From positions 307,004 to 371,003 of the forward strand of contig MNZB01000004.1 of NCBI GenBank assembly GCA_001873435.1: a stretch of 64,000 nt of DNA, written 5' to 3'. The position numbers and the translations under genes were made by a program. The notes under the pieces are model-generated. The model was not told where the DNA came from. It searched no databases and saw nothing but the letters and a program-made list of their open reading frames with translations. Each line of letters opens with the position of its first letter. Within the stretch, counting starts at the first letter, position 1. The DNA comes from Candidatus Pacebacteria bacterium CG2_30_36_39. GTDB taxonomy: Bacteria > Patescibacteriota > Microgenomatia > UBA1400 > PJMF01. Below are positions 16,664-39,898 of this stretch, piece by piece.

Positions 16664-18712
16664 CTATTCAGTTGGGGGAGAGTAGTCATTAATTGTGTAA
16701 TAACCAGCGTATTGTTTTTGTTTGGCTTTTTGTTCTGTTTCGGCTGCTAGTTTTTCATCTTCATCTTGAATTAGTTGCTTTTCTTGAGGAGCTTGAATAG
16801 GTTCTAACTGTTTTTCTTGTTTTGGTTTGAAAAGTGAAGAGAAGTCTTGTTTTTCTTTCTTTTTAACTTCATCTTCTGCTTCTTTTTGTAATTGAAATTG
16901 CTTGTTTTCCGCCCTTTGTTTGAGAACCTCTTCTGGATTTGTTGTAATAACTTCATGTTCTTCATCGCTAGCCACAACTCTTAAAGCTACGTGGTTTTGT
17001 CCTGCAAAAAATACACCCTCTCCAACGTCAGACGAAACCAGCAATTGTCTTTCTCCCTCAGATAAATAAAATGTTTCAGCTAAAACAGGGATTGAAGCGC
17101 TTGATTGCTTCATTAAAAATTGGATAGAAGCATTACTGACAATAGCTTTTCCATAATCATTATGTAAAAAGTCCTCAACATCTTGAGTAATAGTAGTAAT
17201 TCCTAAATAATATTTACGTGCTCTTTTAACCATAGAGTGAATAAAAGAGGCACTGTCTTTATGCTTCATAAAATACCAGGCTTCATCAATCACTAAAATT
17301 CTACGTTTTAAATTCTTTTTTACTCTAGTCCAAATAAAATCTAGGATAATAAACATAGCAATAGGCCTAAGAGCTTCTTCCATTTCTTTTACAGAAAATA
17401 CTGTAAAAGGATTGGTAATATTCATATTGGATGGTTTATCAAAAATACCTCTAAAGGAACCGGTGATAAACTTTTCAAGTCTAGCAGCAATATCATTAGC
17501 ATCATCATTTTCCATACCAATTAGTGCTTTATATAGATCTTCCATTAGAGGTGGTTCGTTTGTTTGAGTTACTGGATCTGGAGTAATGCCCTTGGCTTTA
17601 TAAGCAGCAATTAAAGCTCTATCTAATAAGGCTTCTTGTTGGGCAGTCATTTCTCCCAACATGACTTTTAGTAATCCGTGTAGGGTAATAACTTTTTGTC
17701 CAAGCTCATTTTCTCCCTCCTCATACATAGCAGAGAGATCAAATGGATTTAGTTTTGTTTCAGAACCAAAGGTGAAGTTAATATATTCTCCGCCAACTTT
17801 TTTAGCTAACTCCTCATATTCGTGTTCTGGGTCAAGAACAATTACTTCAGCATCAAACATTAATTGACGAATAATTTCCAATTTAACAGTATAAGACTTG
17901 CCTGCACCAGATTTAGCGAAAATAACCATGTTGGCATTTTCCATTTTAAAACGATCAAAAATTACCAATGAATCATTATGTTCATTAATTCCATAAAGAA
18001 TTCCAGTTTCCATGGTTAATTCTGAAGAAGTAAAAGGAAAGGTTGTGGCTAGTGACGTAGTATCCATGTTTCTAGTAATCATTAGCTTATCTTTACCCAT
18101 TGGAAGAGTGGTCTTAAAGCCTTCATCCATTTGCAAAGTTGCCTTTTTAGAAACAATAAGCAGAGAACCCAACATTGATTGAATGTTTTTGGTTATTTTA
18201 TCTAAAAACTCCATACTTGGAGCATTCAGAGTTATATATAGACCAAATTGAAAAAATCTCTCTGATCCAGCTGCTAGTTGTTCTCGAATGGACCTAGCAT
18301 CACTTAATTTAATCTCAGTATTAATATTACTAATTTTTCCAGATCTGATGTCAGATTGGATTTCTGCCTCCATCTCAGTAATTTTTCTTTTTAAGTTATC
18401 TAAAACCTCAGAAGAGTCAACGGGATAAACAAACATTGAGATGTTTGCTTGACTAGGAAAGTTAATAAGAGGAGATAACCAGTTGGCTGGAACTGTACGA
18501 GGGTAGCCGGCCACAAAAAGAGTACGGGTGTAAGTAGAGTTAATTTGTTGATAGGTAAAATCAACCTCAATTGCTTCAGGAGCAATAATGTCTTGAATTG
18601 TTACTAGACCTTGAGAAAACTCTTTGATCTTTTCCATCTCTTTTTGTTCTTGAGTTGGTTCTGAAGAGTTATTCGTGGTTTTTTTGCTAAAAAATGGCAA
18701 CTGAAAGGGCAT
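16664..18712 (-). CDS. VirB4/TrsE/PrgJ-family T4SS ATPase, core and C-terminal ATPase portion.
   Basis: 682 aa. ...TRTLFVAGYPRTVPANWLSPLINF...ISMFVYPVD...LKRKITEMEA; Walker A FAKSGAGKSYTVK; Walker B ILVIDEAWYFM. Matches the Gram-positive conjugative VirB4 layout. Confidence 0.85.
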   Translation of the reverse strand: MPFQLPFFSKKTTNNSSEPTQEQKEMEKIKEFSQGLVTIQDIIAPEAIEVDFTYQQINSTYTRTLFVAGYPRTVPANWLSPLINFPSQANISMFVYPVDSSEVLDNLKRKITEMEAEIQSDIRSGKISNINTEIKLSDARSIREQLAAGSERFFQFGLYITLNAPSMEFLDKITKNIQSMLGSLLIVSKKATLQMDEGFKTTLPMGKDKLMITRNMDTTSLATTFPFTSSELTMETGILYGINEHNDSLVIFDRFKMENANMVIFAKSGAGKSYTVKLEIIRQLMFDAEVIVLDPEHEYEELAKKVGGEYINFTFGSETKLNPFDLSAMYEEGENELGQKVITLHGLLKVMLGEMTAQQEALLDRALIAAYKAKGITPDPVTQTNEPPLMEDLYKALIGMENDDANDIAARLEKFITGSFRGIFDKPSNMNITNPFTVFSVKEMEEALRPIAMFIILDFIWTRVKKNLKRRILVIDEAWYFMKHKDSASFIHSMVKRARKYYLGITTITQDVEDFLHNDYGKAIVSNASIQFLMKQSSASIPVLAETFYLSEGERQLLVSSDVGEGVFFAGQNHVALRVVASDEEHEVITTNPEEVLKQRAENKQFQLQKEAEDEVKKKEKQDFSSLFKPKQEKQLEPIQAPQEKQLIQDEDEKLAAETEQKAKQKQYAGYYTINDYSPPTE

Positions 18713-18758
18713 TGTTCTCTATTGTAACCATATTTTTACTAAGACTTGTAGTGCAGAA

Positions 18759-19817
18759 CTATAATTCTGCCACAGGTGGTAATGTTTGATCTACTTTTGG
18801 TTGATTTTGCACCACAATTGGAGCTACTTCAATTTCTTTTTTTACTTCGTTTGGTTGTAAAACTTGATTATTTGCAGTTTTTGCTGCCTCAAAGACTGTT
18901 TGGGTTTGAATTTGAGTAGGTGTTTGTTTTGGAATTTCAACAGGAGTAGTTTGATTTTGCGGGACAACCTGTAAATTTGGTCTTGGAGCAGCTTCTTCTG
19001 GCATTTCCTTTGGTACTACCGCCGAAGCTGCTATTTCAGCAGTTCCTGCTTCCGGCACATCTTTGACGGACTGAATGTTTTCTTTCTTAGAATCATTATC
19101 TTTAGTGAGACTGATTAATGAATTTAAGTCTGGAGCTGTTTGAGCCTGAACAGTCATTGTTTCATAATCTTGACTGTTGGTAATTTGCTGACCCTCATAG
19201 GCCTCTGGGTTATAGCTATTATAGAAAAACTCAATTATTTCTTGAGTTAAGATTTGTCTAGCGAATAAGCCAATTCTATTAAATTGAGCAATTAAGTGAT
19301 CTCTTCTTGGTTCCAGAACTCCAAGGCCCTTTTCTATTACTGCGGCTTTTTGTTCTTTGGTTAGACTAGGAGCACTACTGCCGGGAAGAACACTCTGTGG
19401 TGTAACCATGCCAACCTCTGCAGGAGAAGCAGGAATAGTTACATAGAATTTTTTATCAAGAACATTTCTTTCTTTGATTAATTGACCAACAAAACCCTGA
19501 TATCTTTGAATTAACGCTCTCTTTTCATTAGTAGTGGCTTTTTCAGCTTGAATATCTAATAAACGAAGATAAGCAGTCGCGTCTTTTGTTTTAGAACTAA
19601 TAATAATTTGAATTGGAAAGTTTAGTGAATTAAGGAGTGCGGCGTAGGCATAAATAATTGCATCTTGTTCTTGCTCTGCTAATAAGCCGAAATTCATTGC
19701 ACTGACCATTAAAGTCATGGAAACAGTTCCATCTTTTAAAATAGCTACGTCATTAGAAATATCAAAAATATCTAAAAACTTTTGTGTTGTGGAAGAAATA
19801 TCATCGCCAGCAGACAT
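18759..19817 (-). CDS. VirB4 N-terminal-domain-like protein, encoded separately upstream of the ATPase and carrying a long disordered tail.
   Basis: 352 aa. DISNDVAILKDGTVSMTLMVSAMNFGLLAEQEQDAIIYAYAALLNSLNFPIQIIISSKTKD...KKFYVTIPA resembles the first roughly 150 aa of TrsE/PrgJ-type VirB4. The C-terminal roughly 170 aa is Q/P/T-rich low complexity. Confidence 0.55.
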   Translation of the reverse strand: MSAGDDISSTTQKFLDIFDISNDVAILKDGTVSMTLMVSAMNFGLLAEQEQDAIIYAYAALLNSLNFPIQIIISSKTKDATAYLRLLDIQAEKATTNEKRALIQRYQGFVGQLIKERNVLDKKFYVTIPASPAEVGMVTPQSVLPGSSAPSLTKEQKAAVIEKGLGVLEPRRDHLIAQFNRIGLFARQILTQEIIEFFYNSYNPEAYEGQQITNSQDYETMTVQAQTAPDLNSLISLTKDNDSKKENIQSVKDVPEAGTAEIAASAVVPKEMPEEAAPRPNLQVVPQNQTTPVEIPKQTPTQIQTQTVFEAAKTANNQVLQPNEVKKEIEVAPIVVQNQPKVDQTLPPVAEL

Positions 19818-19869
19818 ATCTGTCTATCGTACAGGAAAAGAAGATCACCTCGCAACTTGTAAACAAAAT

Positions 19870-20889
19870 TTAAACGGATCTTATTTCCAATGGTGTAATG
19901 ATTTTGCCGCTTAAAGTTAAAGTTTTTTCAGTAAATTGAAAATCTGTTTTTTCGACAGAAATAATATAAGTGCCATTAGGAAGGGCAGTGCTCAAACTAA
20001 ATTGTCCCAATAAATTAGTTTTTAATGAGGAGACAACCTGTCCCTGGGTTGTTTTTATTGTTATCACTGCTTGATCAACCAACTTATTGTCTTGAGTTAA
20101 AACCATACCAACAATAGTATTTGGAGTAGTTGGTTGTTTTGGAAAAGGAAGACTTTCGTTGGTGGAGATTGTTTCTTTTGGAATTTCTATCGTTTTGTTA
20201 ATAGGGATTGTTTCTGGAACTGGCTGCAGGATTGTTTTGTCTGCTGAGGCAATCTCAATTTTTTTATTAGTTTGTTGTTGCTGTTGAAAAATAATGTTTT
20301 CAGAGTTTTCAACCATGTCTTGACTTTTTTTAGCCAAATTTCTTACTTTTGGTACTAAATTTGGTTTTACTTTTCTTGGCGTTGCAGTTATTTCTGTTAC
20401 CTGAACATTTTCATAAAGAGCCAAAACATCTCTAATTTTTATGTTTTCTTCATCATCAAAGGAGTCGGTGGGTTTTTGATCTCCTACAGAACTAAGGTAT
20501 TCTTTAATTCTTTGTCTACGAGCTGGGGTTAAATCAATTTCAAAAGCTTCCTCTTCCTTGGTTTTTTCTCTTTTTTGGTGAGTAAAGGCAAATGGAATTT
20601 CTGTTTCTTTTTTCCAATAATATTTAGTTGGGTTATAAATAATCTTAAAAAATGTAGTAATCCAGTGATCCAAAGGTCTTTCTTCTATTGGAACAAAGGC
20701 GATAATTACACCAAATCCAGCCGAGAGAATAATAAGAGTCCATTTAACAATGCCTATTAAATTGGTGTTGTAAATAATTACAGCAATCACCACACCCAAA
20801 GCAACCTCTGCAAATTGCTTTAAGGTCATATTGCCAACAATATGAAATTTATATCCCACAACGTCTTGTGGAATTGGATGATCACGCAT
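19870..20889 (-). CDS. PrgI/VirB3-like T4SS membrane protein with a C-terminal carboxypeptidase-regulatory-like beta-sandwich domain.
   Basis: N-terminus IPQDVVGYKFHIVGNMTLKQF followed by two TM helices, a PrgI-family pattern. The C-terminus TIVGMVLTQDNKLVDQAVITIKTTQGQ...GQFSLS.LPNGTYIISVEKTDF fits the CarboxypepD_reg-like motif. Confidence 0.5.
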   Translation of the reverse strand: MRDHPIPQDVVGYKFHIVGNMTLKQFAEVALGVVIAVIIYNTNLIGIVKWTLIILSAGFGVIIAFVPIEERPLDHWITTFFKIIYNPTKYYWKKETEIPFAFTHQKREKTKEEEAFEIDLTPARRQRIKEYLSSVGDQKPTDSFDDEENIKIRDVLALYENVQVTEITATPRKVKPNLVPKVRNLAKKSQDMVENSENIIFQQQQQTNKKIEIASADKTILQPVPETIPINKTIEIPKETISTNESLPFPKQPTTPNTIVGMVLTQDNKLVDQAVITIKTTQGQVVSSLKTNLLGQFSLSTALPNGTYIISVEKTDFQFTEKTLTLSGKIITPLEIRSV

Positions 20890-20964
20890 GCTGTGTATAT
20901 CTTAGCGTGTCTCAATGACTGATGCTAGAGTTATGTTGAAAGAAAAAGAAAAAATCAGGGTAAA

Positions 20965-21972
20965 CTATTCAACTTTTACTGCTGGAGTGATAATTTCAGC
21001 GTCTATTATTTTTCCTTCATTGCTAAACAACTTTCCCACAAAGTGATAGAAAGGGTAAGCAATTTTTTGATTTAAGTCAGCTCGATATTCAATAGTAACA
21101 CTAGTTAAATCTCCAGATTCTATTTCTTTTAAAGAGATGGTTCCAGTTTCTTTATTATATGCGGAGATGATTGAAGCTTCTTGTCTATTATTTATATTGT
21201 CTATTGCCTCATTAATTGGAATGGTGGTCAAGTTTTTTTCGGTTAATAGCGGATAAATAAATTTATCTTGGAAAACTATTTTTTGAACTTCATAATCACT
21301 GTTTATTAATACTGATATAGCAGCCTGTTTTTGATGTTCTAGAAACAAGGGGATATTATTAATTGTATAGATGAAAGGTACTTCAATAATTGTTGTTTCA
21401 CCAAAAGATACTTCTCTAAGTTCTCCAATTCCATAAAAACGCTTAATTCCACCTTTGTACATAGTTAAAGGAAGGCTGTTAAAAACAGTTTTTACAAAGT
21501 CTTGAGCAACTTTTGTTGCTTTGTTTGTTTCAGAAATAAGATTGTCTTTTGGTGAGAAATTGGAATAAAAAAGATATGAATCATCTTGAGTATTATATGA
21601 GAGAGTAAACTTCTCACCTTTCCAAAGACCTGGTACATCAGGCACTATTTTTAGTGAATGCTCTTTTATTAATTGATCCTTTAGATATTCAGCTGTAATA
21701 GTGCTGGGACTAATTGTTGCTAACGGATATTTTGGTTTTGCTTCTGGAACTTCACCTGTAAAACGAATATTTTTAAATCTGGTTTGATCTCCGCCATTAT
21801 TTGTTATTACAAAATCTGTTTTGGGAATTATTGTTTCTTTTGGAGTAAAAATAGTAAAGAGTGTTGTTAAAACTAAGCCAACAACACTAATTCCAATCAA
21901 TATCACATACCATTTTTTTTCAGCTAAAAATGTTTTTTGAGTTTTATTCATAACATGTCCTAACTGGATCAT
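20965..21972 (-). CDS. Bitopic membrane protein; a possible VirB8-like T4SS component.
   Basis: 335 aa. Single N-terminal TM WYVILIGISVVGLVLTTLFTIF with a large extracytoplasmic domain. The call rests on position in the cluster only. Confidence 0.3.
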   Translation of the reverse strand: MIQLGHVMNKTQKTFLAEKKWYVILIGISVVGLVLTTLFTIFTPKETIIPKTDFVITNNGGDQTRFKNIRFTGEVPEAKPKYPLATISPSTITAEYLKDQLIKEHSLKIVPDVPGLWKGEKFTLSYNTQDDSYLFYSNFSPKDNLISETNKATKVAQDFVKTVFNSLPLTMYKGGIKRFYGIGELREVSFGETTIIEVPFIYTINNIPLFLEHQKQAAISVLINSDYEVQKIVFQDKFIYPLLTEKNLTTIPINEAIDNINNRQEASIISAYNKETGTISLKEIESGDLTSVTIEYRADLNQKIAYPFYHFVGKLFSNEGKIIDAEIITPAVKVE

Positions 21973-24900
21973 TTACTTTAACACTTGCTCCGTCTGGCAT
22001 TAAAGATGGTAAAGTTCCAGAATTTGGTGGACTACCAATTAAACCAAAATGTAGGTGAGGGCCAGAAGAATTACCAGTATTTCCCATGACTCCTAAAATT
22101 TCTCCAGCAGAAACACTTTTGCAAGAAAGAGTGTTTGAAGATCTCATGTGAGCTAATACAAAACTACCTTCAGCAGATTTTAAAACCACATGAATTCCAT
22201 AGCCTGGATCCATATTTCCAGGACAGGCTTCTCCATCAAAAGGAGCAAAAATTGGTGTACCTTCGCTATTAGCAATGTCAAAAGCATCAACTCTCTGATG
22301 TGAATAACTACCACCTGGTAGCTGAGTAATAGTTCCACTGGCGGGCCAACAACCAGCACCTTGAGAATAATCACCGATATAAACTACTTCACCAGTAATA
22401 GCGTTATCAGTGCCTTCCACACCCGTTTCTGGATCCTTAGCGAAGATTTTTAAATCAAAAGTATTTAAAATTGAGGCATTATCATATTTTTCATCAAATG
22501 TTTCTGAATAAGAGAGAACAACCGACTCTCCTGGAGTAATAACCATTTCCTCATATAATTCTGGAAAGTCAGTTAAATTTTTTATTCTATCTGGAATTGT
22601 TGGGGGAGTTTTGCCCTCCTCTTCCCAAGCCTTTTTGCTGTGGTTAACTTTTAAGGTGTCTTTGGCATCTAAAACTTGTAAAGTAAAGTTTCCTTTTGGA
22701 GTAATAGTGATCGTGTATTCAACTTTTAAAGGAAAGGCTGGGTTTTCACATTTGTTTTCTGGACAACCAGCAATAAATGCTCTTTTTTCAATAGTGACAT
22801 ATTCTGACTCTTTGCCCGGAGTAGAACCAGAAACAGTACTTAGAGGATCAACAATGGGGAAGTTGGCTAATAGAGCACCAGATTGAACGGCGTGTAAAAG
22901 TAGATTTCCCCCAGTAATTAAACCAGCTGATGTTAATACTGCTTGGGTTGCGATGTGGGTTACTGATTTGGTTACAATTAAATTTGAATGGGGAATGGCA
23001 TTGTTGATTGCTGCTTTTTTTGCCAAAGCGCTATTTGCAGCCGAGATCGATGAACTAGTGCTTGGAACATGAATGGCTGACGCACTTTTGGCACCACTAA
23101 ATAAATCACCAAACCATTTTTCTGCACCATATCCAAGCCAACCTCCACCAATGGCTCCAGCCAAGGCTCCGCCTGGGCCTCCAAAAATACCTCCCAAAAC
23201 TCCACCAAGGGTTGCACCAATACGACCACCCCATGTTAGTAGTGGAACAATCAAAGATCCAAGTCCTAAGCCACCACCAATTAATAAGGCCTGGCGACCC
23301 TTTTTTGTGGTAGCTATTTTTGCAAAGAAACCAAGAGCTGGGTGAATAGCTGTTCCAGCAGCAGCAGCTCCACTGCTCAAACCAGCTTCTGCAGCCTTTT
23401 CAGCCGCTTTAGCAGCTGCCTTTTTACTTAGTCTTGAGCTAACACCATTAATTCCTCTTTTGAGTTTGTTTCCCAATCCAGCCGTTTGTTTTCTAAAAGA
23501 TTTAATACTAGATAGTGGAGACCTAATAACTCCAGCTTGGGGAATGTATTGAGATTCATAGCCGTTGGCTTGAGATTGATCGTAAGATGCTGCGGCTCCG
23601 CCAATTAGAGGAGCTAAATCATGAATTGCTAACTCTCGTGGAACAAAATTAACATCATTGGCAATGTTTTTAACTGCATTGCCACCGGCTTCTCCATACC
23701 CCAAAGCAACGAGAATTTGTTCTCTTTCTTCGTATTGTATGTTTTCCCAGACACTTTTTAAAAAAGCTTCTTTTTTCTTACTATCTATTAGTGGGCTTTT
23801 ACCGTTGGTTAGTTCAACTATTTCTCCTGGGTTGGAAGAAATAGCTTTTGCTCCAACCATGGTTTTGTTAGTTGGAGCTGCTACTCCTCTAGCAAAAACC
23901 TGATTACTTTTACTAGCTGATATCTCGCCCTTGCTTTTATCTAGTAAATCTAGGGCTTCTCTAGTAGCAAATCTAGCTTCATTGTGTAATAAGATTTGTC
24001 CAGTTTTTCGGCCAAGAATTGATCTGCGAGCAATCCAAATTTCTTGTAATGATTCATAAATATCTGGTCTAAAAGGTATTTCATCACCAAAAATCAAGCG
24101 AAAGCGACCTTCATCAATGTATTTTAATAGTTCAATTGGGTAGGCCTGATCAATCCAGGAATCAATTACGTTAACAACGTTTGTTTTTGAAAGTGCCAAA
24201 CGATCGTCTCTAACACCAATTCTTCGAAGCTCTGTTTCAAGTAGCTTGTCTGTTTCTTTGGTTAGATAGTCAACGTCTCCGCTAGCAAGTTTGTCTCCAG
24301 AGAGACTAGTTAAGATTTCTTGTTCTTTAGAATTTTCAAAAACCCCAGAAAAACTTTGAATAAGGGGGCTTATATCTTCTCCCTGAGAGGCTCTTTCAAT
24401 TGCATTTTCTATTTGTTCTTTAATTTTGGGGTCGGTATTTCCTTTAACTATGTCTTCTAGTCTGTTTGAGATTAAAGAAGTGGTACGAAAATCGTTTTGT
24501 ACCATCCAAATATATTCTCGAATGAGAGTTAGTCTAGTTTCTGGATCAAGTAGGTTTTTATGTTTTCCATCTCCAATTACGGTAAGGAAAAAACCAGTTG
24601 TTTTTTGTGAAAGTAACTCACGAAGTTCTCTAGAATTCTGTAGGGTTCCAGGCGGTAATTTATGAAAAATTTCTAATTGAACAAGGGCTATTTCAGTAAA
24701 ATTAACAGACTGCTCTCTTAAAGCCGGACTAAATAGTTGGCTTTTAATATCAAGTAATTCTTCTGGTTTTGTTTCTTTTTTTTCTTCTAGTGGTCTATTT
24801 TCTTCGTCTTTACCTTCGTTTTCAGCGTTTTCTTCCTCGTTTTCTTGAGCCTGAGTAGTTCCGGTTGCAACCACTGCTGTATCCACCGATTGGGTTTCTT

Positions 24901-25450: not shown

Positions 25451-25497
25451 TGTTATTTATTATAGCTGTAATCTGGTTGAAACGCACGAGAAGTCAT

Positions 25498-27228: not shown

Positions 27229-27440
27229 AAAAGCTCCTCGTTAGAGGAGCATCGGGTAAGACAATGAATATCCCGATGCTCGTCGGAAAAGTAATTTTAT
27301 TTGTTACTTTTCTTCTAGTTTTCCAGAGGAAAACTAGGTTACTCTGACCGGACTTGTCTTTGAAAAAGCTTCACCGTTGCGGCACAGTCCTCGAATTAAA
27401 CGAGACTTCCGAGTAATGGGGAAGTTATAGCATGCATGGG
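27229..27440 (-). ncRNA. GC-rich structured RNA element, either a small RNA or a cis-regulatory leader, ending in an intrinsic-terminator hairpin that abuts the downstream GTG start.
   Basis: About 50% GC in a roughly 33% GC genome. Multiple stable hairpins: CUAGUUUUCC-AGA-GGAAAACUAG, AUCGGG...CCCGAU, CUCG-AAUUAAA-CGAG. On the minus strand, GCUCCUC-UAAC-GAGGAGC plus UUUU lies immediately 5' of the GTG. The RNA class is unknown. Confidence 0.4.
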
Positions 27441-30943: not shown

Positions 30944-31007
30944 AAACAGTCAGCTTAATTAGTTTTTTTAGCGAAAAAAATCTTACTAGGCAATTAGAAT
31001 ATTTATA

Positions 31008-32732
31008 TTAGTCAACTGCTTTATCAGTTGCTCTTGGATGTGGCTTAGTAGTTCCGCCCTCTTTTTTATTAAGAAGTTTATCAAGTATTTTGGTTGAATC
31101 TTGAGGGTCAAATAAATTTCCACTTCTTGCTTGATCAAAAAATACACGACCCTTTTTGCCTGTTTCAACATCGCCGCTCCATCCTTGTAGAACTCCACCG
31201 GCTCTAATGTCTCGGCCATTCTCATCTTTCTCTCCAGTCTTAGCTCCTCGCCATAAGCTATCTGTAAGAAATGCTCTTGGGTTTTGTCTACCATACGACA
31301 TAATTCCAGCCTTTGCTGCACCTCCAACCGCACCAATTGCACCCGTTGCCAATGGCAAAGCAGGTTCTCCAGCTGCCATATTTTTAACAGCTTTAAAGGC
31401 CAAGGTTTCCCAAATACCACCATCAATTTTCATGGCTTTTTTCATTTCAACAATCAACTCTGGAATTACCAAAATAATACCTATGCCAACCAAAGTCATA
31501 ATAACTCCTCCGGACCCGCGACCAATTAAATATGGAGGTAAGAATCCACCACTATTAATATCTCCCTTGGTAAACAATTCATAGAGAATTAGAGAAAATA
31601 AAACCATTGGAAAAGCCATTAGGTTGCCAAAAACAATCTTTATCCAATAACCAAAATTACTTTTTCCTGGTAAAGCTCCCATCATTAATAAAACTGGAGC
31701 AACAACTATAGCAATAATTATGGTGATATAAATTTTGAGAAGATCAAAGAATAATTTGAATACGCCAATTAAAATAGCAACGGAGACGATTAAACCCAAT
31801 GTAAGACCCCCCAGCCATCCCAAAACATCTCCAACAGCGCCCGTATCAATGGCACCAGCAAAGCTCTTAACTGCTTCATTCATATTAGCAAAAGCACCAC
31901 TGCCATTAACTCCAGTTACCAAATCCCAGCCAATTTGTAAGAAGTTTTTACTAAGCAAATCAACACCACTATCTGGTCTGAATAAACCAATCATTAAATA
32001 CATAATTAAATACATCAAATCAATTAAAAATCCAGCGATGGCATAAGAAAAAGTGACGAAAATTAAAGAAACAATAATTCCAGGAATAGCTTGTTGAGCC
32101 GTAACCACGGTTTGTCCACCAAGATTTTGACGGAACATGATCATAAAACCAATAACCAGGAAAATTACTACAAAAAAGAAATAAGCAATGTTGCGGAACA
32201 CTTTCCAAGCCTCAAGTACTGGATCAAGTGAAGAGAAGCCCAATCCCTGAGCATGTGCTTGAGGAATAATATGAGCATCTTCCAATAAAGTGGCCACATA
32301 GGTAACTCCAGAGGCTGGAGGATTATAAAGCATGGCCAAAGCTTGAGTTGTTTCACCAATCGCTCCGCGTCCATATTTAGCATAAACAATCTTTTTTTGT
32401 TCATCAGTCATTTTTTGCACAGTTGGAGAATTTTCTGGCACGCCATTTAATTTTAAATAAGCATCTGCCTCCCAAGCATTTGATGTTTCTGGAACAAAAG
32501 AATTGAGTGAGACAGCTCCTGTTTCATCGGCGGCAACCTGTGCCTCAAGAGTATTGCTGGTATTTTGTTCAATGCCAGTAACCTCCATAAACCACTGGAC
32601 TAAGTCAAGGGCTTTAACAGGTTTAGCAGTCAAAAAAGATGCTGTAATAAAGAAGGCTATGAGAATAATTAACCGGGTGAGGCTTTTCATTGCTTTTATA
32701 TTGTACGTCAAGAAAACAAAAAGCAAAACCAT
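31008..32732 (-). CDS. VirB6/TrbL-like polytopic membrane protein.
   Basis: 574 aa. Signal peptide MKSLTRLIILIAFFITASFLTA (the likely true start is this Met, about 32690), a periplasmic domain of about 150 aa, at least 6 TM helices, and a hydrophilic C-terminal tail. The architecture resembles the VirB6, TraL or PrgH class. Confidence 0.45.
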   Translation of the reverse strand: MVLLFVFLTYNIKAMKSLTRLIILIAFFITASFLTAKPVKALDLVQWFMEVTGIEQNTSNTLEAQVAADETGAVSLNSFVPETSNAWEADAYLKLNGVPENSPTVQKMTDEQKKIVYAKYGRGAIGETTQALAMLYNPPASGVTYVATLLEDAHIIPQAHAQGLGFSSLDPVLEAWKVFRNIAYFFFVVIFLVIGFMIMFRQNLGGQTVVTAQQAIPGIIVSLIFVTFSYAIAGFLIDLMYLIMYLMIGLFRPDSGVDLLSKNFLQIGWDLVTGVNGSGAFANMNEAVKSFAGAIDTGAVGDVLGWLGGLTLGLIVSVAILIGVFKLFFDLLKIYITIIIAIVVAPVLLMMGALPGKSNFGYWIKIVFGNLMAFPMVLFSLILYELFTKGDINSGGFLPPYLIGRGSGGVIMTLVGIGIILVIPELIVEMKKAMKIDGGIWETLAFKAVKNMAAGEPALPLATGAIGAVGGAAKAGIMSYGRQNPRAFLTDSLWRGAKTGEKDENGRDIRAGGVLQGWSGDVETGKKGRVFFDQARSGNLFDPQDSTKILDKLLNKKEGGTTKPHPRATDKAVD

Positions 32733-32787
32733 TAAAAGATTAATTAAATACTACAAAATAACTCATAAATGATCTATACTACTCATA

Positions 32788-33609
32788 ATGATCGCGCTAG
32801 AGCAAATAAATTCTCTAAAAGAATATTTTCAATCCGCTGAAACCATTGCGGTAATATTGGGTGCCAAACCTTCGGTTGATCAAATTGCTTTAGCTAGTGC
32901 TTTATTTGAAGGTTGTAAAAACCTTAATAAAGAAGTTGGCTTCTACGCTCCAAGAAAAATTCAAGACGAATACTTTTCTTCTCTCAACGAATTACAAACA
33001 GAACTAGGAAAACAAAACCTAGTAGTTTCATTTGACTATGATGAAACAGCTGTCGATAAAGTTAGTTATCATATTGGCGAAGATACCAAGAAATTTTATT
33101 TAACAGTGAAACCAAAAAGAGGTCAGAAACCCCTTGATGCCAAATCAGTTGAATTTTCTTATGCAGGAGCCGAATTTGATTTAGTATTTCTAATTGGAGT
33201 TCATGATCTAGACTCATTAGAGCAACTATATTATGGCTATGAATCTTTTTATGATAATACCTATGTAGTTACCCTACACAACTTTAAAACCGAAATAGGC
33301 ACAGCTCAACTGGACTTATCTGGGTTCAGTAGTCTTTGTGAAGGCTCAATGGCTTTACTTGAAAACATTGGCATTGAATTAACAGAATCAGTTGCGACCC
33401 CATTACTAATGGGATTAGATGCTGCTACTCAAAACCTTCAATCTTTTACTGCCACTGCCGATACATTTGATAATGTTGCCAAGCTTTTAAGAACCGGAGC
33501 AAGAAGAATTAAACGCAAAGAATCTCCATCTATTTCTATAAAAGAAGACAAAAAACTTGGTCGCCCAAGAAAAAAGAGAATTACTAAAATTGAAATTAGT
33601 AAATCTTAA
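32788..33609 (+). CDS. Hypothetical protein with a basic AT-hook-like C-terminus.
   Basis: 273 aa. C-terminal KKLGRPRKKRITK. No confident family assignment. Confidence 0.3.
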   Translation: MIALEQINSLKEYFQSAETIAVILGAKPSVDQIALASALFEGCKNLNKEVGFYAPRKIQDEYFSSLNELQTELGKQNLVVSFDYDETAVDKVSYHIGEDTKKFYLTVKPKRGQKPLDAKSVEFSYAGAEFDLVFLIGVHDLDSLEQLYYGYESFYDNTYVVTLHNFKTEIGTAQLDLSGFSSLCEGSMALLENIGIELTESVATPLLMGLDAATQNLQSFTATADTFDNVAKLLRTGARRIKRKESPSISIKEDKKLGRPRKKRITKIEISKS

Positions 33610-33626
33610 TTAATTTCCCAAAAAAA

Positions 33627-36272
33627 TTAACGAATATTGCCACAATCTAACTTGAATGTGTCCATCGTACAAACACAGTAGTTTGCGCCGCCACAACCAT
33701 CAACTTCCTCGTAACCAGCGCAAGCGTCAGTTGTAAGATATTCTGTTGGCACACCATAGTTCCTACCAGCCATCATATAATATAGTTGTTGGGTAGATGG
33801 GGTAGTGCCATGAACGGCTTTGTATTGTTCTACTAGCCAACCTCTTTCTGATTTTCTTTTACGAAGCACATATTCCATTGAAGTTTTAATGTCGCAACCA
33901 ATGTCTGGATTATTTCTTGCCTCTTGAACCCATGGATCAGAAGTATCATCAGCAATGTATGCTGCTTGTGGACAGCCAGCTTTATCAATGCATTGGGGGA
34001 TAAGGACACCAACAATTCCTGAAGCGCCACAGGCATTGGTAATTATTTCTCCACAACTCATTTCTTTTTCTCCAGCCAAAATCTTTCTTAACATAGGACT
34101 TCCCTCGATTTGTAAAAAGCCCCAAAGCATCTGCGCATCATTTGGATCATTGCCAGCTACACTACAAGTCATTTTCATTAATTCATTCATAGTTGGTAGC
34201 TTCGTTGTTCTTCCCTTAATCTCATCACAAGATTCTTCTTCTCCAGTACCAGGCTCCTCATTGTTTCGATCATATCCTTTGCAGCGACCTAAGAATAAGT
34301 CTTCAGTTCTTTCACAAGAAGTAACATATTCATAAGTTTTTGATCCCATCTCACGGAAATACTCTTGAATTTTTCTAATTGTCCAACCAAGTTCAGCCCC
34401 CAAAATTCTCATTGGCTCATCTGGATGCTCAACTGTTACACCAGTAAACTGTTTTCTTTCACAAGGAATACAGTCACCCTCATCTTCATCTTTTTTATTA
34501 CAACTCTCAGAACAACCGGGTGGTTGGTGGTAAATAAAGCTAAAGGTATCTGTTTTACTTTTTAAATTAGCGCTAGTATTTATAAACGTTAGATATTCAG
34601 GAATAATTCCGCAGGCTCCATTAAAATCTGGTACACAGTTGTTTTCGACGATTGTTTTGAATTGTTCAGTAGTAAATAGTTGCTGTAAAGTTTTATTAAT
34701 GTATTCCATATCAGCTCCATATGGAGTAATGAGATGGCCTCTAACAGCAATTGGATCAGCATCGAGATCACCGTTAACTACGGTGTCTTTAACAATAATA
34801 TTCCAATCAAAGGTATATTTATTATCAGAGGGGAAAGTGAAAGAGAAGAAAGGATCTCTTAACTCTCTTTGTTCTGGGTCGACAATGGCCATAGAACCCA
34901 ATTCACTAACAATTTCATAAGAACCATTGAAGCCAGCACAGTCTAAACCACTACCATTAACCTGATCTATTAAAGATCTCATGAGGATTTTGTCTGGAGC
35001 ACCGCCAATACATTGAGGCAATCCGCCACAATTAATAATGGCATCTTTTTTTCCTTCTCGAACAGCCAAGATATCACCCAAAAATTCTTTACGATCTTTT
35101 TTCATTTCATCAATGTGAGCTTGGATTCTGTCTGGCTCACTATATAGATAGCTGGTTAGTCTTGCCGAATCCATAAGCCCAGGCATCGAAAAAATCATAT
35201 TGGTTGCTGTCATTGGAACTTTGAAGCCAATAACAATTGGAGCATGTTTTTTAACTGGCATTCTTGGATGCTGAGCTGGGTTTGGCTCTGGTTTAATGAT
35301 TTGTAAAAAGTCAAAAATATCAGCATTAGATTCAAATAGAGCAGGATTGACCAACTCATTCCCTTCCATAACATTTTGTTTGATAGAAACAATTAAGAAA
35401 GCCAGGCGATACATGCCATCTAGATTTAAAGGAGCAGCTGTAATAGCGCTTCTCACTGGAGACACATCTGTTTTGTAATCGTTTTCGCTAATCCCAAACT
35501 CTTCTTCCATTTCTGGATTCCAGACACCCATGATTTCTGTACAGCTAAAGTTTTTATCTGGATTGGTTTTGCTTTTAATGTTTAACAATCCATGCATTTC
35601 AGCAAAAAGCACTAATCCACCATAATCAGTTCCTGGAATTTCTACTTGATTAACATAACAAGGGGAGCCAGGATCTTTAAATTTGTCACAAAAATATCTG
35701 TTATAGATACTATATAAATTATTGTATTTCACTATACATTGCTGACTTGGAGACATAAGTGATGTAGCTGCTCCAGCAGAGTTTAGTTCGGCTGGCTGAG
35801 TTTGTTGGTTATTAGCTCCAAAAAAACCATCATATGAAGAAACCTTTGTTGTGTTAGGAAAATCTTCATCTCCTTGAAACAGAGGAATTTTGCCTTCTGC
35901 AAATCTTCCATCATAAACAGCTTCAGCAGTCAGTCGAACTGGTTTGTCATATTCTTCAAAATATTCTTCAATTGCTCCGTGAACTTGGCCATTAATCCAC
36001 CATTTTGGTTTAACACACTGAACTTCATATCCTTGGTTGTAAGCCATTTGATAAGTAATAGTATCTTGAACAGTGCCAGTATCTCCAAGAGAATAGCCTT
36101 CTTCTAAAACGAGGGGTAAGTAGTTATATATTTCTGGATTTTTTCTAGCGTAATTAACAGCATCATCACTAGAAGCTGCTTGAATTTGTGAAACTCTACC
36201 AACGAGTAAATATCCTGTTAGGAAAAACAAAAACAATGGTCTTAACATTGAAGATTTTGATTTCACAATCAT
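33627..36272 (-). CDS. Secreted Cys-rich large protein with a C-terminal lytic-transglycosylase (SLT/VirB1-like) region.
   Basis: 881 aa. Signal peptide ...FLFFLTGYLLVGRVSQIQA. More than 40 Cys residues. C-terminal LWGFLQIEGSP...ACGASGIVGVLIPQ resembles the SLT E-S...GA.GLMQ catalytic motif. Confidence 0.4.
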   Translation of the reverse strand: MIVKSKSSMLRPLFLFFLTGYLLVGRVSQIQAASSDDAVNYARKNPEIYNYLPLVLEEGYSLGDTGTVQDTITYQMAYNQGYEVQCVKPKWWINGQVHGAIEEYFEEYDKPVRLTAEAVYDGRFAEGKIPLFQGDEDFPNTTKVSSYDGFFGANNQQTQPAELNSAGAATSLMSPSQQCIVKYNNLYSIYNRYFCDKFKDPGSPCYVNQVEIPGTDYGGLVLFAEMHGLLNIKSKTNPDKNFSCTEIMGVWNPEMEEEFGISENDYKTDVSPVRSAITAAPLNLDGMYRLAFLIVSIKQNVMEGNELVNPALFESNADIFDFLQIIKPEPNPAQHPRMPVKKHAPIVIGFKVPMTATNMIFSMPGLMDSARLTSYLYSEPDRIQAHIDEMKKDRKEFLGDILAVREGKKDAIINCGGLPQCIGGAPDKILMRSLIDQVNGSGLDCAGFNGSYEIVSELGSMAIVDPEQRELRDPFFSFTFPSDNKYTFDWNIIVKDTVVNGDLDADPIAVRGHLITPYGADMEYINKTLQQLFTTEQFKTIVENNCVPDFNGACGIIPEYLTFINTSANLKSKTDTFSFIYHQPPGCSESCNKKDEDEGDCIPCERKQFTGVTVEHPDEPMRILGAELGWTIRKIQEYFREMGSKTYEYVTSCERTEDLFLGRCKGYDRNNEEPGTGEEESCDEIKGRTTKLPTMNELMKMTCSVAGNDPNDAQMLWGFLQIEGSPMLRKILAGEKEMSCGEIITNACGASGIVGVLIPQCIDKAGCPQAAYIADDTSDPWVQEARNNPDIGCDIKTSMEYVLRKRKSERGWLVEQYKAVHGTTPSTQQLYYMMAGRNYGVPTEYLTTDACAGYEEVDGCGGANYCVCTMDTFKLDCGNIR

Positions 36273-36309
36273 TATTATACCCTGAAAAACGACTGTTTTT
36301 TTTGAAAAA

Positions 36310-36738
36310 TTATAGAATTTTTAATCCGAAGATAGCTTCGAGTATTTGAGCTATCCAATATGAGGCAAAAAGCAGGATAAATCCCAAAATTGCCATAGTA
36401 ACTCTTTGTTTTCCAGCATCAAGGCTTTTGCCATTTGAGGCTCCGGCTAATATTTGCAATCCTCCTGCCACGATCATGACAAAAAGAGCTAGGCCAGCTA
36501 TTGGAAATACAAAGCTTAAGGCTCTGGAAATAATGCCTCCTGGAGTAGAGAGTTCTGCTGCATGGGGAGAGTTTTCTGTTTGTAGAGGATCAAAAGTATT
36601 GAGTACATCAGAAGTAACTTCAAAAGTATCAGCGTCTGGCAAACCACCATTGCCTTGGGCATTAATTATGGTTGGAGTAATAAAAGAAAAAACACCAACT
36701 AAAAAAGCAGTGGAAAGAAATAGAAGAGATTTTTTCAT
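36310..36738 (-). CDS. VirB2/TrbC-like pilin-family membrane protein, paralog 8.
   Basis: 142 aa. Signal MKKSLLFLSTAFLVGVFSFITPTIINA. TM1, loop ASNGKSLDAGKQRVTMA, TM2 ILGFILLFASYWIAQIL: the same architecture as the 572-3567 array. Confidence 0.45.
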   Translation of the reverse strand: MKKSLLFLSTAFLVGVFSFITPTIINAQGNGGLPDADTFEVTSDVLNTFDPLQTENSPHAAELSTPGGIISRALSFVFPIAGLALFVMIVAGGLQILAGASNGKSLDAGKQRVTMAILGFILLFASYWIAQILEAIFGLKIL

Positions 36739-36741
36739 AAT

Positions 36742-37989
36742 TTAGGTTCCAAATCCTGGAATATGGAAGAAGTTAACTCCTATAAATCTTAATAGGGTAA
36801 TAGACATAATGATAAAAATTAGACCAATGAGCGCCGCTGTAATTTGTTCCTTTGCATCTTTGGTGGCCTGAGGATCACCTTGAGATACGGACAATCTAAA
36901 TGCTCCAGCTAGAATTAATAGAAAGGTAGCACCTCCACCAATACTAATACCTATAGTAATAAAGGTTTTAATAATATTTTCTGGTTTGGCTGGAATACAG
37001 CCAATAGCAGTCCAAACTCCAGGTGTTCCACTTGATGTTCCGCCAAAACAGGCTTCACATTTACCGCGTTCAGCACCATCATTTATTTGTTCACAAAGTT
37101 CAAAGTCTCTAATGGTGGCATTTTGAGAAATATCAGTTCGAACATCAACACACATGTTTGTATCGCAGTAAGCTTCTAGGTTAAAAATAGCTTCACAGCC
37201 AGGAAATTTGAAGTTTGAGCCAGCCCTAACTTCTTCAACAAAAACAGTGTGTTTTCCAGTGTCGTCAGAAGTAAATTCTACTGAAGCCTTGCCTCCACTA
37301 GCATTAGTTTTTTTGTCTTGAACAACTTTGAACCATCCATCTACACCAACAACAAATCTAACTTCTCCGTTAAATGGGGTGCCGTCTGCCGCTTCTAGTC
37401 CTTCAACTTCGACGGTGGCTGTGTTTGAAGTAACATCCATACATCCTGGGGCATAACATTTTTTGCTGTTTTTAGTTTGATAAACATAGAGACTGCATTG
37501 ACCACCAGTGTTGTTTTTACTAGTTACATAAGTACCAACATCACAAAGTCTATTGCTTCCAGACAAGCCACTGTCATAGAGAAATACATAATGAATATCA
37601 TCTTCACCAGCCATTGGAGCAGCAGTTAGAGCTTCATTATCAGTAACAGTCCAAGTAACTACCTTATTGCTTACGGATATTCCACCAGGATAAGTTTTAT
37701 TTTGGTCAATTCTAAAGGAACTAGTTTGAGCCTCATCATCAGTGTTGGAAGTTGCTTTAATTTTTAGGTAGTATTCAGAATTTGGGTTGTAACCACTAGA
37801 CATGTCGATTTTAATAACATGAGAGCTGGTTCCAATGGGAAGTTTTTCTCCACCAGCTCCGGAAATAACTCCTTGGCAGGAAGAAGCATAAACATTATTT
37901 GTTGTGTTCAGAAATAGAGCCATGACAAGAAGGATCACTGATGTTTTTCGGAAAGCTGAAACTAAAAACAATGCCCAAGTGTTTTTCAT
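36742..37989 (-). CDS. Secreted Cys-containing domain of about 320 aa fused to a C-terminal VirB2-like pilin module; a candidate pilus-associated adhesin.
   Basis: 415 aa. Signal peptide. C-terminus ...GISIGGGATFLLILAGAFRLSVSQGDPQATKDAKEQITAALIGLIFIIMSITLL reproduces the two-helix plus charged-loop pilin core. Confidence 0.45.
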   Translation of the reverse strand: MKNTWALFLVSAFRKTSVILLVMALFLNTTNNVYASSCQGVISGAGGEKLPIGTSSHVIKIDMSSGYNPNSEYYLKIKATSNTDDEAQTSSFRIDQNKTYPGGISVSNKVVTWTVTDNEALTAAPMAGEDDIHYVFLYDSGLSGSNRLCDVGTYVTSKNNTGGQCSLYVYQTKNSKKCYAPGCMDVTSNTATVEVEGLEAADGTPFNGEVRFVVGVDGWFKVVQDKKTNASGGKASVEFTSDDTGKHTVFVEEVRAGSNFKFPGCEAIFNLEAYCDTNMCVDVRTDISQNATIRDFELCEQINDGAERGKCEACFGGTSSGTPGVWTAIGCIPAKPENIIKTFITIGISIGGGATFLLILAGAFRLSVSQGDPQATKDAKEQITAALIGLIFIIMSITLLRFIGVNFFHIPGFGT

Positions 37990-38143
37990 GGTTTGAATTT
38001 TGTCTTTTCAGACATGAGATATTCTATCACGATTTCTTGAGCTAAAACTAGTCTTATAGCAACTAATTTAGCTATTAATTAGTTAAAAACATGTTTTCAT
38101 AAGTTTCCCTCGATTTCAGCAATGGTTTCTATATAATGAAGGA

Positions 38144-39898
38144 ATGTTGTTTAAGCACAGCAAATTACTCGTGCTGTTTTTACTGTTCTCAGTATTTTTT
38201 TTAGTCGGCGGCTTTCCTGGCTTTTTGGCAATGGCAACTGATCCTGTGGCTGATTTACAACAGCAAATCGATGAGTTGGAGCGGATGAAGCAAATGTCAG
38301 AAAGCGCGACGAAACCACTTGAACAAGAACTCACTTCTTTACAGAAAAAGATTTCTAATGCTCAACAAGGGATTATTGCTGCTGAAAAACAAACTAAAGA
38401 ATTGGAACAAAATATTATTAATAGGGAAGATGATTTAGCAGTGCAGTACATAATTTTTACTCATCGTATTGCTCAGCAGTACAAACGATCAAGAACTTTT
38501 TCTCCGTTGATGCTATTTTTCAATAGTACTGATGCCAGTAAATTAACTAAGAACCTCGCCTATAGCTCTTCGGTTCAAGCTCAAGATAATCATCTTATTC
38601 ATTCTTTAACACAAGAGATTTCTTCTTTGGAAGTAGACAAAAAGAAGCTTGAAAAAGACCAAATTACTTTGGCTTCATTACAAAAGCAACTATCTAGTCA
38701 AGCTGTTTTTTTTCAAGTAGAGATTAATAAAGCAAAGGATTATCAACAAGATTTAGCTGGAAAGATTGCCAATCTTTCTGCTCAGCAACAAGCAATTATT
38801 AGTGCTCGTTCTGGCACATCCATTACTTCAGTAGGAGAGGTTCCATTGGCCGATGATTTTAATGCTTCTATCGCTTATAAGTCTCAAGCTCCTGGCAATT
38901 CATTTGCTGTTTTTAGTTTTGGAGCTTATACCCACCGCAATGGTATGAGCCAGTATGGCGCCAAGGCCAGAGCAGAGGCCAATCAATCAGTGGAAGAAAT
39001 TTTGGCAGCATACTATCCAGGTACTTCAATTAAAAAAGATTATTCAGAAATGGGGGATATTTCTGTTCAAGGAGTTGGCTCTATTTCTTTTGAAGGACAA
39101 TATTTACAAGGAATCTATGAAATGCCAGGTTCTTGGCATATTAACGCTCTTAAAGCTCAAGCCATTGCAGCTCGTACTTTTGCGATCAAATATACTGATA
39201 ATGGTAGTAAATCAATTTGTACTACAGAGAGTTGTCAAGTTTTTAAAAATTCACCAAAGGGTGGGGATTGGGAAAAGGCTGTTAATGAAACAAAAAACTG
39301 GGTTTTGGTTGATGGCTCTGGTAATCCAGTTTCTACTCAATATGCTTCTACTCATGGTGGTTTTAGTAAGACTAGCGGTTGGGATACGACTGATAAATCA
39401 GGATCAAACGATTGGTCTACTAGAGCTTGGGAAAACAAAGCTGGTAGCCCATGGTTTTATAAAGCTTGGTATAGATCTGGATATTCAGCTAGCGGAGCTA
39501 GCTGTGGCAAATCACATCCGTGGCTATCGCAAGAAGAATTTACAGACATCATTAATGCTTGGATTGTACGTAAAAACCCCAATGGTGCAGACGTAAATAG
39601 AATTACTCCTACTACTATTAATGATTGTAATATTGGTGGCCAGGGAGGCAATCCATATTCAATTTCAGAACTAAGAGATAAGGCCAATGCATCTGGCGGA
39701 GCTGTAACAAATATTTCTGCTGTTTCTGTGAGTCATAGTGATAATGGTCAGACTTCAACAGTGAATTTTAGTACCAATAGGGGAGACATTTCTATTTCTG
39801 GCAGCGAATTTAAGGAAAGTTTTAACTTGAGAGCTCCTGGATATTTACGCATACCACAGAGTAGTTTTGCTTTCTTTAACATTGAACATAAAAACTAA
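38144..39898 (+). CDS. SpoIID/LytB-domain protein with an N-terminal coiled coil.
   Basis: 584 aa. N-terminal TM, a coiled coil of about 200 aa, then AYTHRNGMSQYGAKARAEANQSVEEILAAYYPGT: the GMSQYGA motif of SpoIID/LytB. Confidence 0.7.
   Translation: MLFKHSKLLVLFLLFSVFFLVGGFPGFLAMATDPVADLQQQIDELERMKQMSESATKPLEQELTSLQKKISNAQQGIIAAEKQTKELEQNIINREDDLAVQYIIFTHRIAQQYKRSRTFSPLMLFFNSTDASKLTKNLAYSSSVQAQDNHLIHSLTQEISSLEVDKKKLEKDQITLASLQKQLSSQAVFFQVEINKAKDYQQDLAGKIANLSAQQQAIISARSGTSITSVGEVPLADDFNASIAYKSQAPGNSFAVFSFGAYTHRNGMSQYGAKARAEANQSVEEILAAYYPGTSIKKDYSEMGDISVQGVGSISFEGQYLQGIYEMPGSWHINALKAQAIAARTFAIKYTDNGSKSICTTESCQVFKNSPKGGDWEKAVNETKNWVLVDGSGNPVSTQYASTHGGFSKTSGWDTTDKSGSNDWSTRAWENKAGSPWFYKAWYRSGYSASGASCGKSHPWLSQEEFTDIINAWIVRKNPNGADVNRITPTTINDCNIGGQGGNPYSISELRDKANASGGAVTNISAVSVSHSDNGQTSTVNFSTNRGDISISGSEFKESFNLRAPGYLRIPQSSFAFFNIEHKN

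Follow-up and report, generated by a model that had tools for sequence, protein, structure and literature searches.

Why the genes of a type IV secretion system (T4SS) should lie directly beside dnaA, and whether they still belong to a mobile element, is the question raised by a locus of Candidatus Pacebacteria bacterium CG2_30_36_39. The locus occupies positions 16664-39898 of the stretch of DNA analysed here (64,000 nucleotides of contig MNZB01000004.1, hereafter the window). The original prediction had placed a T4SS-like locus directly 5' of dnaA and had favored a domesticated machine over an integrative and conjugative element (ICE). The position is confirmed, since according to the listing of open reading frames (ORFs) only 166 bp separate the end of virB4 from dnaA. 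As to its nature, the locus is very probably a chromosomal, relaxase-free T4SS that derives from monoderm (MPF-FATA) conjugation machinery and is no longer a mobile element. Domestication is supported by the absence of mobility marks, by a synteny found in 72 of 72 relatives and by the conservation of VirB4.

The evidence for a fixed locus comes in the first place from related genomes. A VirB4-seeded scan with one genome per species yielded 266 relatives, of which 80 were kept (L001-L080), whose VirB4 shares 71-85% identity with the present one in the best tblastn segment. Wherever a locus included 1 kb or more downstream of virB4, which was so in 72 cases, dnaA came next in the same orientation (72 of 72); likewise, each of the 64 loci reaching 3 kb or more upstream had the TrsD and PrgI genes ahead of virB4. 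In iterative searches 63 ORFs turned up for the M23-type protein and 52 for the bitopic one, in corresponding places. The order recurring in the 80 genomes reads M23 - bitopic - PrgI - TrsD - VirB4 - DnaA - DnaN - YidC - Jag - RNase H - DUF4012. For VirB4 the median identity, taken over the length of the query, amounts to 73.6%, as compared with 58.3% for DnaA, 54% for YidC and 44% for DnaN; VirB4 is the most conserved protein of the neighborhood and exceeds DnaA in 72 of 72 genomes. For a secretion ATPase this degree of conservation is out of the ordinary and speaks for an essential role. It also points to a vertically inherited gene under strong purifying selection and not to the cargo of a mobile element. 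Together with the invariant virB4-dnaA synteny, it therefore indicates a fixed, vertically inherited chromosomal machine and not an ICE. The record titles of the 80 relatives are mostly Pacebacteria, Paceibacterota, Woesebacteria or 'Patescibacteria group', which, with the VirB4 identity, is consistent with a VirB4 of the Patescibacteria clade; many titles are evidently wrong. Close relatives with such wrong titles include many 'uncultured Pseudomonadales' (for example L001, L003 and L009), a 'Limisphaerales', a 'Pacearchaeota archaeon' and the complete genome CP011212.1, listed as 'candidate division TM6'. These mistitled relatives carry the same Pacebacteria-type virB4-dnaA locus, with VirB4 at 77-85% identity. 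The window, for its part, matches a 119.9-kb JGI metagenome contig with full identity.

The marks of mobility were sought across the window. No relaxase, integrase or VirB11-type ATPase was found among the scanned ORFs of the 64 kb, which bears out what had been claimed; the scan took in all long non-nested ORFs of at least 100 amino acids (aa) except those at 925-1389 and 2141-2551, which are pilin paralogues by alignment. Neither tRNA genes nor Rfam families were detected in the 64 kb. Attachment-site direct repeats on both flanks, which the original prediction had named as a sign of an ICE, were searched for as well, and only short, imperfect AT-rich matches typical of chance were obtained. 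The GC content of the locus (0.359) lies between those of its flanks (0.334 and 0.373).

The surroundings of dnaA place the locus at the probable replication origin. DnaA-box-like sites (at most one mismatch) match 34 times in the whole window and four of these matches fall within 14773-14985; the sole perfect DnaA box of the window, TTATCCACA, sits in the dnaA-dnaN spacer, and the cumulative GC skew is lowest at about 13-16 kb. It is from this cluster of boxes and the skew minimum that the T4SS locus is located at a probable origin. A scan for promoters and terminators was uninformative, as promoter-like sites between virB4 and dnaA were as frequent as in shuffled sequence. The genes of the locus and the anchors on its dnaA side are the following.

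13605-14714, minus strand: dnaN, by profile match
14715-14985, no strand: dnaA-dnaN spacer, probable oriC (cluster of DnaA-box-like sites, minimum of the GC skew)
14986-16497, minus strand: dnaA (Bac_DnaA, 8.7e-66)
16664-18712, minus strand: VirB4-type ATPase, 682 aa (NCBIfam CD1110 family, Pfam P-loop_TraG, PDB 4ag5)
18759-19817, minus strand: TrsD-like protein, 352 aa (weak NCBIfam matches, PF26593 TraC-like)
19870-20889, minus strand: PrgI/VirB3-like membrane protein, 339 aa (Pfam PrgI, CarboxypepD_reg)
20965-21972, minus strand: bitopic protein, 335 aa (N-terminal membrane helix and three alpha/beta modules)
21944-25450, minus strand: M23 metallopeptidase-domain protein, 1168 aa
25498-27228, minus strand: 576-aa protein lacking Pfam, NCBIfam or PDB matches
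27512-30943, plus strand: 1143-aa protein of a lineage-restricted family, with an N-terminal coiled coil
31008-32732, minus strand: VirB6-like candidate, polytopic, 574 aa (hydrophobic segments, sub-threshold matches)
32788-33609, plus strand: 273-aa protein with a faint RecJ-like/DHH resemblance
33627-36272, minus strand: exported Cys-rich protein, 881 aa with 28 Cys (lysozyme-like / lytic-transglycosylase-fold C-terminus)
36310-36738, minus strand: VirB2-type T4SS pilin, 142 aa (PF18895)
36742-37989, minus strand: fusion of a Cys-rich domain and a pilin hairpin, 415 aa (PF18895 just below the cut-off)
38144-39898, plus strand: SpoIID/LytB-domain protein, 584 aa (SpoIID, 5.7e-15)

The inventory agrees in most points with the one originally proposed. 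Of a co-directional set, ten of the thirteen genes hold, and those for the 1143-aa, 273-aa and SpoIID proteins lie on the opposite strand. The VirB4 assignment passed the profile test clearly and that of PrgI narrowly; the bitopic protein, the M23 hydrolase, the SLT-like Cys-rich protein and the pilin-like genes were all recovered as such. For the VirB6-like protein the hydrophobic segments and the conserved position stood, and its profile matches stayed sub-threshold. The TrsD-like gene had been missed, and further genes of the type found in such systems lie beyond the predicted interval, as described below.

At the core of the translocon, VirB4 scores 390.5 bits against the NCBIfam model 'VirB4-like conjugal transfer ATPase, CD1110 family' (cut-off 325) and 7.1e-25 against P-loop_TraG, and it carries a Walker A (AKSGAGKS) and a Walker B (ILVIDE) motif. 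Its best relative of solved structure is the Firmicute VirB4 of Thermoanaerobacter (4ag5, 7.8e-48 for the ATPase domain) as against 3e-6 for TrwK of R388, and by its sequence it is classed with the monoderm (FATA) type. It also matches the Mycoplasma ICE family Mbov_0397 (8.8e-81), below the cut-off of that family. The CD1110 match begins only at position 177 of the 752 of the model, so that the N-terminal part of the family model is missing. The TrsD-like protein, which ends in a Pro/Gln-rich disordered tail, is weakly matched by precisely the N-terminal stretches of the VirB4 models (CD1110 positions 15-120, Mbov_0397 positions 115-233) and would thus resemble the domain that VirB4 lacks; its TrsD/TraD match (5.3e-5) is sub-threshold but specific, and PF26593 TraC-like is its precomputed annotation. 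The PrgI-like protein passes its Pfam model with 27.2 bits against a cut-off of 27, shows a hydrophobic stretch at about 21-68 near its N-terminus and ends in a CarboxypepD_reg beta-sandwich (6.1e-8). In the bitopic protein a single N-terminal membrane helix is followed by three alpha/beta modules of the YycI/YycH/PepSY type. The NTF2-like fold of VirB8 was not identified in its extracytoplasmic domain; the fold is YycI/PepSY-like and no clear VirB8 fold. The 574-aa protein displays several strongly hydrophobic segments between residues 180 and 430 approximately, is strongly conserved (1e-99 in the related locus L086) and had no sequence match in the PDB. It reaches 20.8 bits (2.2e-4) against the ICE membrane protein family Mbov_0396, with a cut-off of 70; within its family, two of six members matched membrane proteins of Mycoplasma ICEs (Mbov_0396 and MMCAP2_0566) below threshold, at 2e-4 to 5e-4. 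It is a weak VirB6-like candidate, with a topology and a conserved position that fit.

Two further components have the domain content of wall hydrolases. The 1168-aa protein comprises a soluble N-terminal part of about 700 aa, a Gly-rich membrane segment at about 720-780 (hydrophobic at 721-739) and an exported C-terminal Peptidase_M23 domain (1.5e-14, 54.4 bits against a cut-off of 28.7) whose zinc ligands are intact, HxxxD at H1051-D1055 and HxH at H1132-H1134. The 881-aa protein, which the SLT model of Pfam did not match, bears at about 690-870 a lysozyme-like / lytic-transglycosylase-fold domain of the GH23 type, with the catalytic acidic residue after the first helix, and is a wall hydrolase. 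The SpoIID/LytB protein, which has a membrane anchor at its N-terminus and contains a coiled coil, exceeds the TIGR02669 cut-off of 83.3 with 110.6 bits; whether it is part of the system is uncertain.

Two sets of genes that resemble T4SS parts lie outside the interval.

572-3567, plus strand: tandem array of seven VirB2-type pilin genes (PF18895 matches)
48072-50273, minus strand: VirD4/TraD-like ATPase, 733 aa (TrwB_AAD_bind, TraG-D_C)

With the two pilin-type genes of the interval the array brings the pilin-type genes of the window to nine, of which five reach the Pfam cut-off, two fall just below it and two are recognized by alignment only. The 142-aa pilin has a signal peptide and a two-helix hairpin and scores 26.9 bits against PF18895 (T4SS_pilin, cut-off 26.6), and the 415-aa protein, with 25.3 bits, joins an exported N-terminal domain of some 330 aa, rich in Cys (12 residues), to a C-terminal VirB2-type hairpin. 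The latter could be a pilus-tip or adhesin-bearing variant of the pilin. Matches of pilins to the Mycoplasma pilin-like family Mbov_0395 reached 7e-6 and, for the 415-aa protein, 5.5e-5. The members of the array match PF18895 at 1.8e-11 to 1.6e-4 and share the hairpin at 15-24% identity to one another by alignment. As the array lies across dnaA/oriC from the T4SS core, the genes of the system straddle the origin. The VirD4-like ATPase (TrwB_AAD_bind 2.1e-10, TraG-D_C 2.3e-8) retains Walker A and B motifs, has no hydrophobic segment, begins with a 340-aa domain of no recognized type and scores 56.8 bits against the CD1115 VirD4-like family, far under the cut-off of 250; its membership in the system is uncertain.

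Systems of this kind have been described during the last years. In a survey of 3,035 Patescibacteria genomes, Quinonero-Coronel et al. (2025, Microbial Genomics) found VirB4 in 2,417, forming a monophyletic clade nested in MPF-FATA, with TrsD, PrgI, VirB6 and VirB2-type pilins nearby and pilin arrays of 2-11 genes (PMC12102498). In most classes, Microgenomatia and Paceibacteria among them, virB4 most commonly has dnaA, dnaN and rnpA as its neighbors, which was read as a gene-dosage effect. Homologues of the type IV coupling protein (T4CP) are mostly far from virB4, relaxases occur in 103 genomes only, VirB6 homologues are scarce in Microgenomatia and VirB8 homologues are almost confined to the ABY1 class (PMC12102498). 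The present locus shows no essential difference from that description. It shares the MPF-FATA VirB4, the adjacent TrsD and PrgI, a candidate VirB6-like protein, the pilins and their arrays, the lack of a relaxase, the distance between the T4CP homologue and virB4 and the dnaA/dnaN/rnpA neighborhood. The large neighboring genes were left unannotated in the survey, whereas their order and strand are shown here to be conserved and a fold is assigned to two of them.

The functional model is Southlakia epibionticum ML1, in which Wang et al. (2023, Cell) demonstrated by transposon sequencing (Tn-seq) that the locus SEML1_0006-0019 is essential for epibiotic growth, nearly all of its genes being essential (PMC10633639). 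This agrees with the role in the epibiosis of candidate phyla radiation bacteria that the original prediction had mentioned for a related apparatus. The Southlakia locus contains a lysozyme-like protein, six pilins and proteins of about 1000 aa with no known function, and was noted to lack coupling proteins and relaxases that could be recognized (PMC10633639). A review in FEMS Microbiology Reviews (2025) restates both studies and counts this as the sole T4SS reported to be essential to its bearer (PMC12857230). Both loci are origin-proximal, keep PrgI, 0009 (in Southlakia) and VirB4 in this order on one strand, and include a lysozyme-like hydrolase, proteins of about 1000 aa and a pilin array. 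However, recF and five other genes separate virB4 from dnaA in Southlakia, whereas here they abut; Southlakia has an NTF2-like protein (0012), and the bitopic protein here is YycI/PepSY-like; as hydrolases the present locus encodes an M23 peptidase together with a protein of lytic-transglycosylase fold; and no lineage but this one has the 1143-aa family.

With the conjugative T4SSs of the MPF-FATA type in Firmicutes (pCF10 Prg, pGO1 Trs, the C. difficile CD1110-type ICEs) the locus shares the CD1110-family VirB4, TrsD, PrgI, a wall-hydrolase function of the VirB1 type and a VirD4-like (CD1115) relative. Those systems, carried by plasmids and ICEs, possess a relaxase, an oriT and a membrane coupling protein, none of which was seen in the 64 kb, and they are generally without VirB2-type pilins (PMC12102498), unlike the present one with its nine genes. 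The adjacent Mycoplasma ICE families Mbov_0395 (pilin-like), Mbov_0396 (polytopic) and Mbov_0397 (VirB4) all have counterparts here, which fits the published MPF-FATA ancestry, but the Mycoplasma module is part of a mobile ICE and all scores obtained here are below the family cut-offs.

From the roles of these families a mechanism can be proposed. VirB4, with TrsD supplying its missing N-terminal domain, would dock on PrgI and the VirB6-like protein to form a membrane translocon, with the bitopic YycI/PepSY-like protein standing in for a scaffold of the VirB8 type. VirB4 may then power the extraction and polymerization of pilins into a pilus or conduit, and the M23 endopeptidase, the 881-aa protein and perhaps SpoIID might open peptidoglycan, either that of the cell itself or that of its host. 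By extrapolation from the Tn-seq data of Southlakia, the machine would serve an essential contact-dependent exchange with a host bacterium, by protein export or an alternative to it, and not conjugation.

Several observations weigh against this interpretation. PrgI and one pilin lie right at the Pfam thresholds, the VirB6 assignment combines sub-threshold matches with topology, and no protein with a VirB8 fold was identified. The sole coupling-protein homologue is 30 kb away and has no predicted membrane segment, and the VirD4-like homologue of Southlakia was reported as non-essential (in the context of the survey, PMC12102498). The absence of a relaxase refers to 64 kb of the genome, no substrate of the system is known, and the function is carried over from a model organism of the Saccharimonadia to an uncultured Pacebacteria-type lineage.

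Embedded among the T4SS genes are three that code for proteins without a signal peptide. The 576-aa protein has one weak hydrophobic segment (263-281) and a C-terminal CxxC...CxxC motif of the zinc-ribbon type; searches of Pfam, NCBIfam and the PDB with the single sequence, with a profile and at permissive E-values returned nothing. Six close relatives and the loci L087 and L089 have a homologue in the corresponding place. Directly 5' of the GTG start of its gene, at 27233-27250 on the minus strand, lies a GC-rich stem-loop, perfect over 7 bp (GCTCCTC-TAAC-GAGGAGC), with Ts after it, within the 283-bp divergent spacer common to the 576-aa and 1143-aa genes; the AGGAG in it could be a sequestered ribosome-binding site. 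The 1143-aa protein is predicted to lack membrane segments, begins with a coiled coil of about 400 aa and found in the PDB only coiled coils of the SMC type. A word-indexed homologue search returned two proteins only, and it was an exhaustive HMMER search that revealed the family, consisting of 77 clusters among 1.84 billion representatives and hence restricted to this lineage. Its genes are in all cases embedded in the T4SS locus and run on the opposite strand. In the conserved C-terminal region of the family there are invariant positions with Arg, Thr and Lys, and His positions that are nearly so. The 273-aa protein, also without a predicted membrane segment, resembles the RecJ-like structure 8ioo (E 0.0027), has no Pfam match and has equally placed and oriented counterparts in L086 (1.4e-64) and L090 (4.2e-61).

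The arrangement of these genes is kept over considerable divergence. Order and strands of the block from 16.6 to 38 kb are maintained in L086, L087 and L090, where the 1143-aa homologue is 26-30% identical. In L086, at 26%, the series runs from a large upstream gene (-) and a 632-aa gene (-) through an 1178-aa gene (+) to the VirB6-like (-), 273-like (+), 881-like (-) and pilin (-) genes. The first two of these bear no significant sequence match to the M23 and 576-aa proteins of the window, so they correspond to them by position and size only. The 1143-aa gene is convergent with the VirB6-like gene in all six contexts with 3' sequence (the window, L086, L087, L088, L089 and L090). The genes that it faces on its 5' side are usually of the 576-like or M23-like kind, as in the window, in L086, L087 and L089 and in seven genome loci, the exceptions being an unrelated neighbor in L088 and an insertion of S-adenosylmethionine-cycle genes in L081 (JBDRPH010000048.1). 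In the latter, the M23-type gene and the 1143-aa homologue have between them, instead of the 576-aa gene, four genes at 1798-6157 (a 239-aa unknown, S-adenosylmethionine synthetase, a PfkB kinase and S-adenosylhomocysteine hydrolase).

The 576-, 1143- and 273-aa proteins are thus conserved partners embedded in the locus, and an order that persists at about 26% identity of the 1143-aa homologue supports the large proteins as components of the system. To this extent the suggestion that the large proteins of no known function are components of the system gained support. One of them, the 881-aa protein, turned out to be a wall hydrolase, and the lack of a signal peptide in the 576- and 1143-aa proteins qualifies the structural or effector role that had been suggested. 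It is possible, as a tentative and rather doubtful idea, that the three proteins, whose genes are interleaved with those of the membrane components, make up a cytoplasmic module of the Pacebacteria-type T4SS that is peculiar to this lineage, either a platform recruiting substrates or dedicated translocated cargo. As a platform, the module might replace the missing membrane coupling protein and relaxosome. If this were true, the 1143-aa family would represent a new class of T4SS component.

The alternative that survives best is an organelle chiefly for pilus assembly and adhesion, in which VirB4 polymerizes VirB2-type pilins for attachment to the host and no substrate is translocated. Nine pilin genes, one of them fused to a Cys-rich exported domain that might act as a tip adhesin, are what such an organelle would be expected to have, the coupling protein anchored in the membrane is missing, and pilin arrays are essential in Southlakia (PMC10633639, PMC12857230). 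We nevertheless regard it as unlikely: type IV pili, whose pilin genes are present here at 59973-61745, have already been demonstrated to be the organelle of adhesion and motility in Saccharibacteria (PMC12857230), and adhesion alone does not account for the wall hydrolases or for the conserved proteins that lack a signal peptide.

Improbable as well is a machine for DNA uptake or release, comparable to ComB of H. pylori or the archaeal Ced system, that would feed nucleotides or genes to a cell unable to synthesize them. VirB4 and the VirD4-like protein do match the DNA-import ATPases CedB and CedD weakly, but these matches are far under the cut-offs and reflect the general relatedness of P-loop ATPases. 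Likewise, radA (46609-48075, plus strand) adjoins the VirD4-like gene, and T4SS loci of the ABY1 class are reported to lie beside comF, recG and radA (PMC12102498); here, however, the two genes are convergent, with 3' ends overlapping by 4 bp, and are therefore not co-transcribed. In Southlakia the deletion of comEC ends competence and leaves viability unaffected, while the T4SS is essential (PMC12857230). The last reading, an ICE or a recent remnant of one inserted beside dnaA and still moving DNA between cells, has the homology of the core proteins to conjugation proteins of Firmicute and Mycoplasma ICEs and the VirD4-like ATPase at 48072-50273 in its favor, but it is already largely refuted by the lack of a relaxase, integrase, tRNA target and flanking repeats in the 64 kb, the flank-like GC content, the identical virB4-dnaA junction in 72 of 72 species-level relatives with VirB4 more conserved than DnaA, and the survey finding that relaxases occur in just 103 of the 3,035 genomes, with a relaxase gene close to virB4 in 15 cases (PMC12102498), and can hardly be entertained any longer.

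The relaxase-free chromosomal T4SS is accordingly a real and strongly conserved locus and a correct rediscovery of a system published in 2023 and 2025; given that PMC10633639 and PMC12102498 already describe it, the observation is correct but not new. What is added here is the conservation of the 576-, 1143- and 273-aa proteins, the YycI/PepSY-like fold of the bitopic protein, and the pilin array and VirD4-like gene outside the predicted interval. The residual value for an under-studied lineage resides in a VirB4 constrained more tightly than DnaA at a fixed virB4-dnaA junction, and in conserved, unannotated proteins embedded in the locus, which may be either cargo or the parts for substrate handling that are missing. 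The T4SS is found in about 80% of Patescibacteria genomes and is probably central to the life of ultrasmall bacteria on other cells.

The flanks of the locus consist of housekeeping genes, namely uppS, a class-I aminoacyl-tRNA synthetase, L25, DUF4012, RNase H, jag, yidC, rnpA, dnaN and dnaA on one side and VanW, a solute-binding protein, CofD, radA, rho and obg on the other. The DUF4012 gene (8201-11128, minus strand) encodes a 975-aa protein with one membrane helix, lies 3' of RNase H in 58 of the 80 related loci and is part of the same conserved origin-proximal syntenic block. Farther away, three type IV pilus pilin genes (N_methyl/T2SSG, 59973-61745) are adjoined by the gene of a 694-aa Laminin_G_3 protein, a concanavalin-like lectin (region 59973-63833), and a sortase gene is located at 52061-52906. 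The type IV pilins, the Laminin_G_3 protein and the sortase are further surface-adhesion functions close to the origin.

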